From positions 1,664,001 to 1,728,000 of the forward strand of contig OZ245365.1 in the NCBI GenBank assembly GCA_965226495.1: a DNA stretch of 64,000 bases, given 5' to 3'. Below are positions 17,654 through 62,565 of the stretch, piece by piece. Source of the DNA: Candidatus Marinacidobacterales bacterium. Lineage in GTDB: Bacteria > Acidobacteriota > Vicinamibacteria > Marinacidobacterales > DATDRI01. The notes beneath the pieces are model-generated. The model worked only from the letters and a program-made list of their open reading frames with translations, was not told where the DNA came from and made no database searches. How positions within the stretch are numbered: the first letter of the stretch is position 1; each line of letters opens with the position of its first letter. Both the position numbers and the translations under genes were made by a program.

Positions 17654-17710
17654 TGTGTTCTCAGTGGAAGCGGCTTGGTCGTCCGAAGTCTCTTCGACCT
17701 GACGATTTGA
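17654..17710 (+). pseudogene. intI: 3'-terminal remnant (about 18 codons) of an integron integrase
   Basis: Reads CVLSGSGLVVRSLFDLTI* versus [18 protein letters not shown] of the integrase ending at 61681. Confidence 0.8.
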
Positions 17711-17934
17711 AAAGCCGACGCCCGCGCCCTACAATCGCCCAAAGGGGTCTCGCGGCGATATCCACATATCCAGACCCACCGGACGCGGAGTATCCCGGAC
17801 GGGAGACAACGCATCATGTCCAACACGAATGGGGTCAGCTACATGAACAACGACACCCACGCTGCATTATCCAATACACGAGCCGGCTTGGATGTGCTAT
17901 CGAATAATCCAGATCTAGATACTTACTGTTGGGC
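17711..17934 (+). mobile_element. attI platform copy A (spacer plus attI; crossover G/TT at 17928-17930)
   Basis: About 198/220 nt identical (hand count) to 61682-61901; homology stops exactly at GTT; core GTTGGGC complements R'' GCCCAAC of the next attC. Confidence 0.85.
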
Positions 17935-17952: not shown

Positions 17953-18504
17953 GTGGTAGGCCCTGACAGCCGTGTTGCGATTTGGAACACCTACTTCAAG
18001 CTCGCCTGGGAGCAGGCCAAGGCGGTGCACGAGTTATCGACCGGTCACTCAAGTAAGGACACCTTCAGGCCCTGGGGTGGCACGCTTCCCGATGGCGAGC
18101 CGGAAGTATTGGCGGTGGTCGTGTTCTGTACCCTAGCGATCGAAGCGCGCGCCAATCACCTGATCGAGGAACTAATCGAGGCTGGTAAGATATCCAAAGA
18201 TACTGGGCGGGCAGCGCGTTGGTTGCCACCAAGAGAGAGGTGGTTCCTCCTCCCAGCGCTCGCGGGTTCCAGCGCTCAACTTGACTCGACCGCTGGTCCT
18301 CACCAAGCTGTGGCTCAAGTTTGCGAGTTACGTAACGATTTCCTGCACGTCAACTACGCAGCTCTTTCTGCAAAGCTGCCGACCGCCACCACAGTGCTGA
18401 GCTACTTTCAACGTGTCGTGGAGGCGTTTGAGGATATGAACGTGTTGCTGGGACGTATCGAGTCGCCGCGCGCGGAAGTTCTTCGGCTCGGGCGGTTCAA
18501 ATGA
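17953..18504 (+). CDS. gene cassette A1: helical protein with HEPN-like RxxxxH motif
   Basis: Between attI and attC; AIEARAN...LRNDFLH. Confidence 0.7.
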   Translation: MVGPDSRVAIWNTYFKLAWEQAKAVHELSTGHSSKDTFRPWGGTLPDGEPEVLAVVVFCTLAIEARANHLIEELIEAGKISKDTGRAARWLPPRERWFLLPALAGSSAQLDSTAGPHQAVAQVCELRNDFLHVNYAALSAKLPTATTVLSYFQRVVEAFEDMNVLLGRIESPRAEVLRLGRFK

Positions 18505-18511
18505 GGCCACC

Positions 18512-18646
18512 GCCCAACACGCCGTTGGAGCGGACGATCGGCGCCAGCGCTGCTTGGCTGGTGCGCTTCGGCAGGTATTGTCGTAGCATGTTATTAAAGG
18601 AAGGGCTAAGGGTGGCACCGCTCGCCGCTCAACGGCCCTGTTGAGT
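18512..18646 (+). mobile_element. attC site (cassette A1)
   Basis: R'' GCCCAAC, L'' GTTGGAGC (extra G), L' GCTCAAC, R' GTT at 18640; arms nearly identical to the attC at 62470-62565. Confidence 0.9.
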
Positions 18647-18761
18647 CTGTAGGAAAACCTCAAAGGGGGTGAATAGATGACCCTATTTCGTCACGAGAGG
18701 CCGCCTTCGAGTGCGAGATCAGGCCATCTAGAGCAGGGCTTCAGGGTTTTCCTACAGACTC
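18643..18761. mobile_element. 119-bp MITE with perfect 17-bp terminal inverted repeats and a GTT target duplication
   Basis: GTT|GAGTCTGTAGGAAAACC...GGTTTTCCTACAGACTC|GTTAGGC. Confidence 0.88.
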
Positions 18762-18848
18762 GTTAGGCCGACGGAAATCTGCAGACTTGTTGTTTGGCGA
18801 GGACGGTCGTTGCGCAAGCTGTCGCTCTAGCTCTAATCTTAGGGAACG

Positions 18849-19780
18849 ATGACAACATACAAGCGCCAGCACACCGTTCCGGTTAGCTATCAGCGCAGCT
18901 TCTCGACCGATCGTGCAAAGAGGAATCGCAGCTCGAAGGTCTACAAGTTCTCCAAGGCTGATGCCTGTTGGACCGGACCGGTTCGTGCGGAGAAGCAGTG
19001 CTGGGCCTCCGACTTCTACTCAGCGGCTGATCGCGAAAAGAGCGAGAAGGAGCTCCAAGTCATCGAAGACGACTACGCGAAGTGGAGCGAGAAGGTCTAC
19101 CAGCAAGGCTTCGCTTCTCTTACCGAAGAAGAGGTCTACAACCTTGCGCTCACCGTGCTGGCGCTCTTCGCACGCAACCCGGTTCACCGACACACGGGTG
19201 TCCTCCCGGAGGAGCGGAATCGCGTAGCAGCCCGATACGAGGCAGTCAGCGTTCTGGTAGCCGCAGAGTACGCGGAAGCAATTAAGGAGGGTGTTTCCGA
19301 GGAAATCCGCCGCGAGCGTCAGGACGAGATTCAGCGTCGCTGGTCACTGCATGAAGTTCGCGCCGCTGCCGGCAGCTCCTTCATCTACACGGACTCACCG
19401 GTGGTCCCCTGTTTTATTGGCACGACCGGCGCTCGCACTCTTGCGTTTATCATGCCGTTCGACGCAGAAGCGGTGTGGATTTACGCGGACGAGGGCGTTC
19501 ATGTCGGCGCCACCACAGCGACCGAGGATGATGTCGATAAGATCAACAGCTCTTGGCCGCCCACGCGATCGACGTAGTGTTTGCGAGCAGCGAAATCGAT
19601 CCAGGTCCAATCCGAGCGGGATTTGCTTCGCCCTTCGACATCAAGAGCGAGATCAACACGGAGGGATGGAGTTTTGAACCCTATCGCCTCACTGACATCC
19701 CTTGGCTTTCTGTTGCGCCAGGTACACCGGGCTCACCTCAGTCGAGAGTTCGCGTTAAGGCGCGTTCTAAGCTTGTGTGA
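18849..19780 (+). pseudogene. gene cassette A2: DUF4238-like protein, apparent 1-nt frameshift near 19550
   Basis: RQHTVPVSYQRSF and FIYTDSPV motifs; frame continues as LAAHAIDVVFASSE (19553-19780). Confidence 0.65.
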
Positions 19781-19796: not shown

Positions 19797-20811
19797 TGTA
19801 GTGTCCTGAGTCTTTGGTTACACACTGAGTCCTGTTTTCTGTCTAAGGCGTTCATACGGGGTCTGGCCGTCTAAGCCTCCATGAGGTCGATGGTAGTTAT
19901 AGTACTTCTCCCACTCGCTCAGTTTTGCATTGAATAGGTGAATGTCGTCGCTGACCCCGTCCTTGTCTAGAAGCTGGTAAAACTCTTGGTCGTCGGTGCG
20001 ATGAGAGCGTTCGACCTTGCCGTTCAATCGAGGGGTCCGGGGCGTGATGTATACGTGGGATATGTCTTTGTCCTGAAGGTGCCAGTGAAACCTCGACTGG
20101 AATTCAGCACCGTTGTCGGTTTGTATGACGTGAATTCTGAAGGGTAATCGGTGGATGACTTCATCGATGAACTGAATGGCCGTCTTTTGACTGCAGGCAT
20201 CGAATATCTTCAAGACCCGTATCCTTGTACAGTCGTCTACGGCCGTGAACTGATAGAGCCTTCTCCGGGTGCCTGGTATTCTCTCCAGGAACTTTACATC
20301 GACCTGCAGCCTATGGCCAGGCTGGCGTTTCTCGTACCGCTTCCAGCGCTTGGTGTGAGCGCGATGCTTCTGGTTTGCGGGCAATCGACTTAGGCCATTG
20401 CGTTCCAGGACTCGGTGAACCGTGGAGCCGGCGATTTTTATCTGATGATATCGATGCAGATAGGAAGCGATTCTCGCCGGCCCAAAGTGGTAGTTCTGCC
20501 GCAAGTAGAGAATCTTGCTGACCGTCTCTTTGGGAGTCTCGTGGGGGCAATTCTTGGGCCTTCTTGGTCTATCACAGAGGCTTGCTTCACCATGGGCCGC
20601 GTACCGAGAAAGCCATTTGTAGAAAGTCGTCCGCGAGATCCCGAAATATCTACAAGTTTTTGAGACATTGTGAGTTGTTTCGCCTGCGTGACGAATGACC
20701 TTCATCCGCCAATTTACCAGTCGCTGTCGTTCCGTCTTCTTCATAGTTGCACTGCCTCTCTGTAGCGCTTAAAAGAAGACTAGTGTGTCACCTATGTCCT
20801 TGGGTTTTACA
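19797..20811 (-). mobile_element. IS481-family insertion sequence (about 1015 bp)
   Basis: Imperfect TGT...ACA terminal IRs (TGTAGTGTCC..GGTTACACACT / TGTAAAACCC..GGTGACACACT) around a single transposase. Confidence 0.88.
19818..20744 (-). CDS. IS481-family DDE transposase
   Basis: HTH (CRYFGISRTTFYKW), rve core VDVK / TDNGAEF / NGKVERSHR, YNYHRPH. Confidence 0.92.
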   Translation of the reverse strand: MKKTERQRLVNWRMKVIRHAGETTHNVSKTCRYFGISRTTFYKWLSRYAAHGEASLCDRPRRPKNCPHETPKETVSKILYLRQNYHFGPARIASYLHRYHQIKIAGSTVHRVLERNGLSRLPANQKHRAHTKRWKRYEKRQPGHRLQVDVKFLERIPGTRRRLYQFTAVDDCTRIRVLKIFDACSQKTAIQFIDEVIHRLPFRIHVIQTDNGAEFQSRFHWHLQDKDISHVYITPRTPRLNGKVERSHRTDDQEFYQLLDKDGVSDDIHLFNAKLSEWEKYYNYHRPHGGLDGQTPYERLRQKTGLSV

Positions 20812-20818
20812 CAGGGCC

Positions 20819-20920
20819 GTCTAACGACTACATGCAGCAGACGGCCGGGTTTATGGAATCAGCAGTTCGCTTCGCGGTCATGCTTGGTGCTCGGGCCGCA
20901 GCTGATGCGCGCTGCTCGCC
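20819..20920 (+). mobile_element. attC site with mutated core (R' GCTCGCC instead of GTTRRRY)
   Basis: R'' GTCTAAC, L'' CATGCAGC, L' GCTGATG, 6-nt spacer, then GCT. Confidence 0.7.
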
Positions 20921-60703: not shown

Positions 60704-61681
60704 ATCCAGATTCATTCTAAACCACCCAAGCTACTCGACCGGGTTCGGTCTGCCATTCGAGTCCGCCACTATAGCCGCCGTACCGAAAAGGCATATGTCG
60801 GGTGGATCAAGAGGTTCATCTTCTTTCACGACAAACGCCATCCCGACGAGATGGGAGAGCATGAGGTTACGGAATTCCTCTCGAGCCTCGCCACGAAGAA
60901 CAACCTCAGCCCCTCCAGCCAAAACCAGGCCTTGAGCGCTCTTCTTTTCTTGTACCAAAACGTGCTCGGTCGCGAGCTCGATTGGCTCGATCGCGTCGTG
61001 CGAGCTAAACGTCGCTTAAGGGTTCCATTAGTGCTCTCGCGTGACGAGGTTGATGCAGTCCTCCAACAGCTTCACGGGACGCCATGGCTCATGGCGTCGC
61101 TTCTCTATGGGGCCGGACTGCGAGTGCTGGAGTGTGCGCGCCTGCGGGTTCAGGATGTCGATTTCCGCCGGAATAAGATCTTGGTTCGAGACGGAAAGGG
61201 AAGAAAGGACCGAGTCACCGTTTTTCCTAATAAGGTGAAAGCACCCCTCGCCGCTCACATCGAGCGAGTCCGCCTCCAACACCGGAAGGACATTGAAGAA
61301 GAGGCCGGATACGTCGAGTTGCCCTACGCTCTCCGCCGGAAGTACCCCCGCGCGGCTCGTGACTGGCCCTGGCAATGGGTCTTCCCGGCCACGCGCTTCT
61401 ATCGGGACCCTCAAACAGGTGAGCGTCGCCGACACCATCTCCACGAGTCGGTTCTCCAAAGGGCCGTGCAAGGCGCGGTGCGCGCCTCGGGGATCTCCAA
61501 ACCGGCGAAGTGCCATACCCTCCGACACTCCTTCGCCACTCACCTGCTCGAATCCGGATACGACATCCGGACGATCCAGGAGCTCCTCGGGCACGCCGAC
61601 GTGAGCGTCACCATGATCTACACCCATGTCCTCAACCGAGGCAGCTTGGGTGTACGAAGTCCTCTCGACGCGACGATTTGA
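60704..61681 (+). CDS. intI: integron integrase (tyrosine recombinase); start apparently ATC/ATT
   Basis: [23 protein letters not shown]; [14 protein letters not shown]; GLR, GKG, integron-specific [30 protein letters not shown]. Confidence 0.95.
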
Positions 61682-61905
61682 AAAGACGACGCCCGCGACA
61701 TACAATCGCCAAACGGAGCCTCGCGGCGATATCCACATATCCAGACCCACCGGACGCGGCATATCCCGGACGGGAGACAACGCATCATGTCCAACACGAA
61801 TGGGGTCAGCCACATGAACAAACACACCCACGCTGCGCTATCCAATACACAGGCCGGGTAGCGTGTGCTATCGAATAACCGAGATCTAGATACTTACTGT
61901 TAGAT
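61682..61905 (+). mobile_element. attI platform copy B (crossover G/TT at 61899-61901), downstream of intI
   Basis: Homology with copy A ends at GTT; core GTTAGAT complements R'' ATCTAAC of the next attC. Confidence 0.85.
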
Positions 61906-62469: not shown

Positions 62470-62565
62470 ATCTAACGCGCCGTTGCAGCGGACGATCGGC
62501 GCCGGCATTTGTTGGATAACCAATATGGGGATGGCACCGTTCGCCGCTGAACGGCCCTGTTAGGC
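62470..62565 (+). mobile_element. intact attC site
   Basis: R'' ATCTAAC, L'' GTTGCAGC, L' GCTGAAC, R' GTTAGGC. Confidence 0.92.

Follow-up and report, generated by a model that had tools for sequence, protein, structure and literature searches.

Introduction

To our knowledge, only two kinds of attC parasite are known, IS1111-attC insertion sequences and group IIC-attC introns. The former have a DEDD transposase and subterminal repeats and leave no target duplication, and the latter are retroelements that carry a ribozyme and encode a reverse transcriptase. Other mobile elements act on integrons from outside: the MITE pair of Acinetobacter class 1 integrons and the integron mobilization units flank whole integrons and mobilise them as composites. 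The general features of the IS1182 family with which we compare our elements below are likewise common background. IS1111-attC elements, of the IS110/IS1111 family, reportedly target attC specifically and with a single orientation of insertion, observations that are said to go back to Tetu & Holmes in 2008 and Post & Hall in 2009. For group IIC-attC introns, attC is the homing site (PMC3001079, PMC7923331, in the portions available), and small non-autonomous elements with terminal inverted repeats have been described at integrons (Gillings 2009; PMC3575428, likewise in the portions available).

Here we analyse a 64,000-nucleotide stretch of DNA from a Candidatus Marinacidobacterales bacterium (hereafter the window), in which a 119-bp element sits inside an attC site. 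We consider it very likely that this element is a MITE of an IS1182-type lineage whose DDE transposase selects the 3' end of attC and inserts in one orientation between two copies of GTT.

Results

The element spans 18643-18761 on the (+) strand and, by direct reading of the sequence, lacks a transposase gene. Its terminal inverted repeats, GAGTCTGTAGGAAAACC at 18643-18659 (+) and the exact reverse complement at 18745-18761, are 17 bp long and perfect; GAGTCTGTAGGAAAACC has two matches in the window against 0.01 expected, a number reached in 0 of 100 shuffles. GTT brackets the element on both sides, at 18640-18642 on the left and 18762-18764 on the right, and the single-stranded fold of the 119 bp reaches -25.5 kcal/mol (z -4.5). 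To the left lies the body of an attC (18512-18642, (+) strand; supported by a hairpin fold and nhmmer arm matches), which runs from R'' (GCCCAAC, at 18512) via L' and ends in ...CCGCTCAACGGCCCT-GTT. The right GTT copy together with the original R' tail reads GTTAGGC (18762-18768, (+) strand), and the two ends of the interrupted attC, R'' GCCCAAC and R' GTTAGGC, match the RYYYAAC/GTTRRRY pattern of attC sites. When the MITE was removed, the reconstituted 135-nt attC folded at -62.5 kcal/mol with its two ends paired. HMMs of the two attC arms, built from eight attCs of the array adjoining intI, matched the MITE-bearing site at 18513-18544 (E 0.0099) and 18613-18645 (E 5.9e-05; nhmmer).

An empty-site reference is provided by a sister attC, the first of the main array (62470-62565, (+) strand; identified by the arm HMMs and direct reading). 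This site is uninterrupted and reads ACGGCCCTGTTAGGC at 62551-62565, its end being ...CCGCTGAACGGCCCTGTTAGGC; the equivalent of the GTTAGGC to the right of the MITE lies at 62559-62565. At the interrupted site, the left GTT (18640-18642, (+) strand) is a copy of the target duplication and joins the first bases of the element into a new R', GTTGAGT. Because the element starts with GAGT, this left junction is again consistent with GTTRRRY. The arm-pairing energy was -29.3 kcal/mol with the MITE junction vs -31.0 kcal/mol for the reconstructed empty site, and the MITE-bearing attC may stay functional. The initial annotation had claimed a 119-bp element with perfect 17-bp repeats and a GTT duplication in the R' core of an attC, an uninterrupted sister site at 62551-62565 and a junction that still fits GTTRRRY; coordinates and sequence bear out all of this. 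We infer that the window copy originated by transposition. The initial annotation had also suggested that the element may influence cassette expression; this gained no support, as a search for promoter-like or terminator-like sites at 18300-19000 found none. There was no Rfam match within the window.

The integron integrase gene intI is located at 60731-61672 on the (+) strand (TIGR02249, 463.3 bits vs a cut-off of 265), and the main array, as delimited by the arm HMMs, extends from 62.4 to ~83 kb in window coordinates, beyond the end of the window. All main-array attCs lie on the (+) strand, in the same direction as intI and the cassette ORFs. The integrase therefore reads towards the cassettes, with attI downstream of intI, where the usual layout is divergent; such an "inverted" arrangement of intI and array occurs in a few phyla. 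The MITE-bearing attC is outside the main array, 42 kb upstream of intI, where it is the sole arm-HMM site for 40 kb around and the first attC of a short array without an integrase of its own. Upstream of this local array, on the other strand, are AhpC/TSA, ABC transporter and TPR protein genes. The array is headed by an attI-like block (17656-17930, (+) strand), of which 275 bp align with 61627-61901 at 86.9% identity; the latter segment covers the final ~50 nt of intI and the sequence between intI and the first cassette. In both copies the similarity breaks off precisely at ...CTTACTGTT, as an attI junction would predict. The genome contains four copies, 79-88% identical, of a ~260-bp block comprising the intI 3' end and the putative attI (17656-17930 and 61627-61901 of the window, and genome positions 5743491-5743725 and 3260582-3260824). 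Each copy terminates at ...GATCTAGATACTTACTGTT and is followed by differing sequence, and attC-like matches occur a few kb downstream of the two distant copies. The genome appears to have four attI-headed cassette arrays and only one intact intI.

The first cassette ORF of the local array (17953-18504, (+) strand) encodes 183 aa without a Pfam match and stops 8 nt before the R'' of the attC. An ORF of the same length precedes the sister attC; we considered the two as relatives and found them unrelated. Beyond the MITE is a DUF4238 ORF (putative cassette 2; 18849-19577, (+) strand; Pfam PF14022, E 2e-15), followed by an IS481-like transposase gene (19818-20744, (-) strand; Pfam rve, rve_3, HTH_32 and LZ_Tnp_IS481). 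A possible decayed attC 5' arm, GTCTAAC...GCAGCAGACGG (20820-20845, listed on the (+) strand), is a weak weight-matrix match (14.3 bits, reverse strand), and no hairpin was found at this candidate arm (z +1.09). The IS481-like gene lies between the DUF4238 ORF and this possible remnant near 20820, and it may have split the second cassette. The notion of the MITE as the new 5' end of the following cassette applies only loosely here: it is followed by the DUF4238 gene, then by the IS481-like element and only a decayed attC arm.

We next sampled related elements in public genomes and metagenomes. With the 10 outermost bases of both repeats as the search pattern, genomes sampled at one per species yielded 36 loci, and a stricter pattern yielded 35 in metagenome contigs. 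Half of the genome loci (18/36), which had only the outer 10 repeat bases in common and different inner repeats, were excluded; GTT or AAC flanks were present in none of these 18. Four diverged-repeat copies beside unpaired ends were added, duplicates were removed by their flanks, and L049, L050 and L051 were left out of the site table. MITEs with this type of repeat were thereby assigned to 53 distinct insertion sites, which are a sample and not a census; a Spirochaetaceae genome (G055), for instance, has 32 repeat ends, of which six copies were tabulated, the others being outside the size range or having diverged ends. The 6.3-Mb genome analysed here contains one copy, and among 54 other genomes of the order a single copy was present in one (L007, 82% identity, full length, between GTTs). 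We aligned five members of the 119-bp subfamily and found that boundaries were sharp at the repeats and flanks unrelated. The window copy is 95% identical to L056 and 82-86% identical to L067, L075 and L035, and L067 and L075 are identical at 119/119 positions while occupying two different sites. Identical or similar copies with sharp ends in unrelated flanks indicate that the element is mobile. PLSDB plasmids gave no match for any MITE subfamily tested, so nothing here ties the lineage to clinical resistance integrons. Separately, at L015, L023, L024, L030 and L034 (Blastocatellia and other Acidobacteriota MAGs), GAGTCTGTAG occurs in tandem 9-bp repeats of the form GAGTCTGTA/GAGTCTATA..., set in long inverted arrays that are unrelated to the MITE.

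The right flank begins with GTT at 40 of the 53 sites. The duplication is a perfect GTT/GTT at 35 of these 40, and the other five left flanks are ATT (three sites), TTT and GGT. The flanks of the 40 GTT sites resemble the 3' end of an attC, with an L'-like box followed by GTTRRRY. On the left, C is present at -4 in 34/40, T at -14 in 28/40 and A at -12 in 27/40; the -14/-12 enrichment falls at the position of the L' box (TCAAC/TGAAC, six bases, GTT), as in this genome's own attCs. On the right, there is a purine at +4 (38/39), G at +5 (29/39) and a pyrimidine at +7 (37/39). Strict GTTRRRY was found in 22/40 right flanks vs ~1 in 16 expected after GTT, and the remainder have forms like GTTAGCC or GTTATGC. 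The earlier suggestion that the element targets attC is thus supported by its other copies, which at 40/53 sites adjoin GTT with attC-like flanks. Recognition may reach beyond the GTT triplet and include the L' box or the structure of attC; the flank statistics are compatible with such extended recognition and cannot separate a preference of the transposase from ordinary attC conservation.

An energy-based attC scan was noisy in this GC-rich genome, and nhmmer arm models and a weight matrix were used instead; our attC calls rest on our own arm HMMs, the weight matrix and a pairing test. The matrix was built from 39 flanks from outside this genome and used to scan the 6.3-Mb genome (12.7 million positions). 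Seven of its top 40 matches fell in the 21-kb array beside intI vs ~0.13 expected, and several other top matches fell in attC clusters located independently by the arm HMMs. In leave-one-out matrix scans, more co-oriented sites with cassette-like spacing appeared in L010, L016 and L012, and a reverse-strand match, corresponding to the R''-L'' arm, was often present 50-120 nt upstream of the target. The pairing test was crude, requiring AAC...GTT pairing and taking its 5,600 control GTTs from the same loci; 15/42 targets ranked in the best 5% of these controls and 21/42 in the best 10%. About half of the GTT targets, including the related-genome copy L007/L035, have no convincing hairpin partner, and some targets may be attC-like motifs only. 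When the target attCs were compared by self-BLAST with the rest of their own locus, no locus other than that of this genome proved to contain a homogeneous array, and a tblastn search with the window IntI against all loci returned one 39-aa fragment, in L010, most contigs being too short to inform. Flanking open frames are co-oriented with the target at 31/36 sites downstream and 28/32 upstream, which shows that the end used is R' and not the near-symmetrical R''.

Orientation relative to attC was the same in 64/64 pairs of related GTT-type MITEs, compared within clusters of 9, 6, 5, 3, 2 and 2 members. Comparison with the ends of the full-length element L054 had left MITE orientation undecided, and the within-cluster comparison settled it. 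Non-GTT sites account for 13/53, a lower bound given that six copies were tabulated from the 32 repeat ends of G055. Eleven of these 13 copies belong to two separate clusters (9 and 2 members), one is a singleton and one is L018, which has a TAT duplication and is an off-target member of a GTT-targeting cluster; 3-bp duplications in the non-GTT MITEs include CTG, CCG, CAG and TAT. A sister sublineage (L022, L037, L039-L042, L059, L065, L071, L072 and L083, from G055 and similar metagenome contigs) comprises MITEs of 109-128 bp with the same outer repeats, multi-copy in the one Spirochaetaceae genome with its 32 repeat ends. Its members lie at non-GTT sites (CTG, CCG, CAG) with similar flanks, ...CCGTGCCGCCGTGT..., and this sublineage may have a different repeated target.

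Full-length elements of ~1.83 kb were also recovered; they have the ends of the MITEs, are flanked by a GTT duplication and code for an IS1182-type DDE transposase. L054, 1,827 bp long, shares these ends; its duplication reads AAC/AAC, which is GTT when read from the opposite strand, and GTTAGAC comes next. It contains a 516-aa ORF with the Pfam domains DUF772 (PF05598), DDE_Tnp_1_6 (PF13751) and DDE_Tnp_1 (PF01609). Against NF033551, the NCBIfam model for IS1182, this ORF scored 255.6 bits, below the cut-off of 270, with an E-value of 9.4e-76 over positions 26-487 of 488; the next-best family, IS5, scored 26.4 bits. The initial annotation's guess of a DDE-type, IS1182/IS5-like element is upheld on the IS1182 side by this model and by DUF772 + DDE_Tnp_1_6 in the full-length relatives. 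A tblastn search of plasmid records identified L090 (1,839 bp) on a Pseudoalteromonas piscicida replicon of 1.3 Mb that is recorded as a plasmid. This copy lies in an attC with R'' ATCTAAC and is flanked by a GTT duplication, and its transposase gene is broken, the longest ORF being 241 aa. L095 (1,843 bp) is flanked by GTT/GTT and then GTTAGGA, and L099 and L109 have GTT at the single readable end, the right one. Together, the window element is, judged by its sequence, a genuine MITE of an IS1182-family lineage, and the direct parent IS of its 119-bp subfamily was not found among the full-length elements recovered.

Transposase relatives at 42-47% identity have TGA or TGG (full-length copies) or other flanks. 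That sister elements make other 3-bp duplications indicates that duplications of this length are general in the family, that the duplication is a true transposition footprint and that GTT is a preference of this lineage. In the transposase tree, GTT-targeting copies fell into two pairs and others into two pairs, with an unresolved backbone, and there are too few rows to say that GTT preference arose once. The transposase gene is co-oriented with the cassettes in 5/6 GTT-type full-length copies, the exception being L110 of Catenovulum. At L110 (Catenovulum adriaticum pCadTS8_1), the locus at 1-1700, beside the attC-inserted IS, is annotated with a BrnT/CopG toxin-antitoxin pair and a group II intron maturase-domain protein, and several kinds of attC-associated element may share this array. 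Metagenomes contain this transposase lineage in abundance: of 8,000 candidates scored, 7,996 had E <= 1e-50, and identity was >= 69% in the 120 best listed. Source annotations call these relatives "transposase" or "IS1182 family transposase" and nothing more specific.

Within this genome we found no cognate transposase: the best match has 24% identity to that of L054 and belongs to an element with different ends. The match comes from the genome's own IS1182-family element, of 1,875 bp, present in five copies >99% identical (L104-L108; genome 2506426, 1325716, 4571891, 6070808 and 1264415) with the ends ACTCGGGACGTGAGAAAAA... We considered this element as the partner of the MITE and rejected it, its ends being unrelated and its transposase only 24% identical to that of L054. 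Repeat-like words elsewhere in this genome gave no partner ends either; GATTCTGGAGGAGAACC... proved to be part of a longer duplicated sequence and not an IS end. A search of 401 sampled genomes of the phylum found no transposase at E <= 1e-60, an empty answer that alone shows little. The window copy is an orphan, a single copy for which no cognate transposase was found. This state is equally compatible with arrival of the MITE on cassette DNA and with later loss of the transposase. The initial annotation had the MITE hitch-hiking on cassettes; this found no support, as among the 40 GTT sites no pair shares its right flank while differing in its left flank.

Discussion

The 119-bp element is best read as a non-autonomous MITE, derived by deletion from an IS1182-family lineage whose terminal repeats start with GAGNCTGT(A/C)G and which makes 3-bp target duplications. 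In the mechanism we propose, the transposase would make cuts staggered by 3 bp on either side of the GTT in the R' core of attC, the element would insert in one orientation, and gap repair would duplicate the GTT. The attC hairpin would formally be kept, with the element and the second GTT then belonging to the downstream sequence.

A simpler account is that the transposase prefers a short motif such as C-GTT-A, and that attC is used because R' contains it. The strongest conserved positions are GTT itself, the C at -4 and the purine at +4, strict GTTRRRY is present in only 22/40, and a detectable hairpin partner is absent at L017, L025, L032 and L035, all as such a preference would have it. 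Yet T at -14 and A at -12, at the position of the L' box, are enriched too, and CGTTA occurs thousands of times per genome while 40/53 copies have attC-like flanks. Moreover, the foreign-flank matrix locates this genome's cassette array among 12.7 million positions, the sites lie within co-oriented arrays, and it is R' that is used and not the near-symmetrical R'' (frames 31/36 and 28/32). Weighing these observations, we regard a short-motif preference as improbable.

The precise position of the element raises a different question, namely whether the integron integrase put it there. Cassette boundaries also fall at G|TT, exactly where the element sits, and an ORF-less gene cassette or other integrase substrate placed between the GTTs would have the same coordinates. 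Against this, the element ends in 17-bp terminal inverted repeats and lacks its own R''/R' pair, GTT stands outside both ends in place of AAC...GTT, a DDE transposase is encoded by full-length relatives that share these ends, and sister copies make other 3-bp duplications at non-GTT sites; we give insertion by the integrase very little credence. We give next to none to a chance palindrome or a lineage-specific attC extension that is not mobile. The element is single-copy in this genome, as such a feature would be, but the repeat pair arose in 0/100 shuffles, and 82-95% identical copies with sharp ends are found in unrelated flanks elsewhere. We therefore retain oriented insertion of an IS1182-type MITE at the attC 3' end. 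A bolder extension, which we think unlikely though worth stating, is that the lineage reads attC as a structure, folded or integrase-bound, and, by keeping a valid R' core, rides on cassette exchange, its MITEs crossing phyla as the 5' ends of cassettes. Such a vehicle would explain orphan single copies like the present one, for which neither the genome nor the phylum sample yielded a cognate transposase.

A DDE lineage with abundant MITEs at the crossover triplet of the integrase would constitute a third and mechanistically different kind of attC parasite, and the first that duplicates its target. It would also provide a natural system for studying how structured recombination sites are selected by a DDE transposase and how such an enzyme tells R' from R''. 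For the annotation of arrays, an interrupted attC is easily overlooked, and an ORF-less "cassette" may be a MITE. In environmental integrons, the lineage may shape cassette expression and array stability.

Our search of openly available full texts found no report tying IS1182 or any DDE MITE to attC targeting. The available portions of 10.1101/2021.07.26.453812, PMC13656550, PMC4889954, PMC8527097, PMC8618304 and PMC7923331 contain no such report. Together with the sequence comparisons, this points to a kind of attC-seeking element for which we found no earlier description. Like the IS1182 family, the present elements have relatives that match NF033551, carry DUF772 + DDE_Tnp_1_6, measure ~1.83 kb and end in terminal inverted repeats; unlike that family as we found it reported, they show attC specificity and a constant GTT duplication, and the L054 score lies just under the curated cut-off. 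They differ from a gene cassette in that the element lacks a 3' attC of its own and is a hairpin between GTTs, not AAC...GTT. The MITEs that flank integrons in Acinetobacter stand outside the array as pairs, whereas the present elements lie inside the attC core, one per site. With group IIC-attC introns they share the targeting of attC, but the window element is only 119 bp long and the window has no Rfam match. A parallel to IS1111-attC is that the present elements also choose attC and one orientation; unlike IS1111-attC, they have terminal repeats, a GTT duplication, a DDE_Tnp_1-type transposase and MITE derivatives. The distinction from both known attC parasites, which the initial annotation had already drawn, therefore stands on the duplication, the terminal repeats, the DDE enzyme and the lack of a ribozyme.
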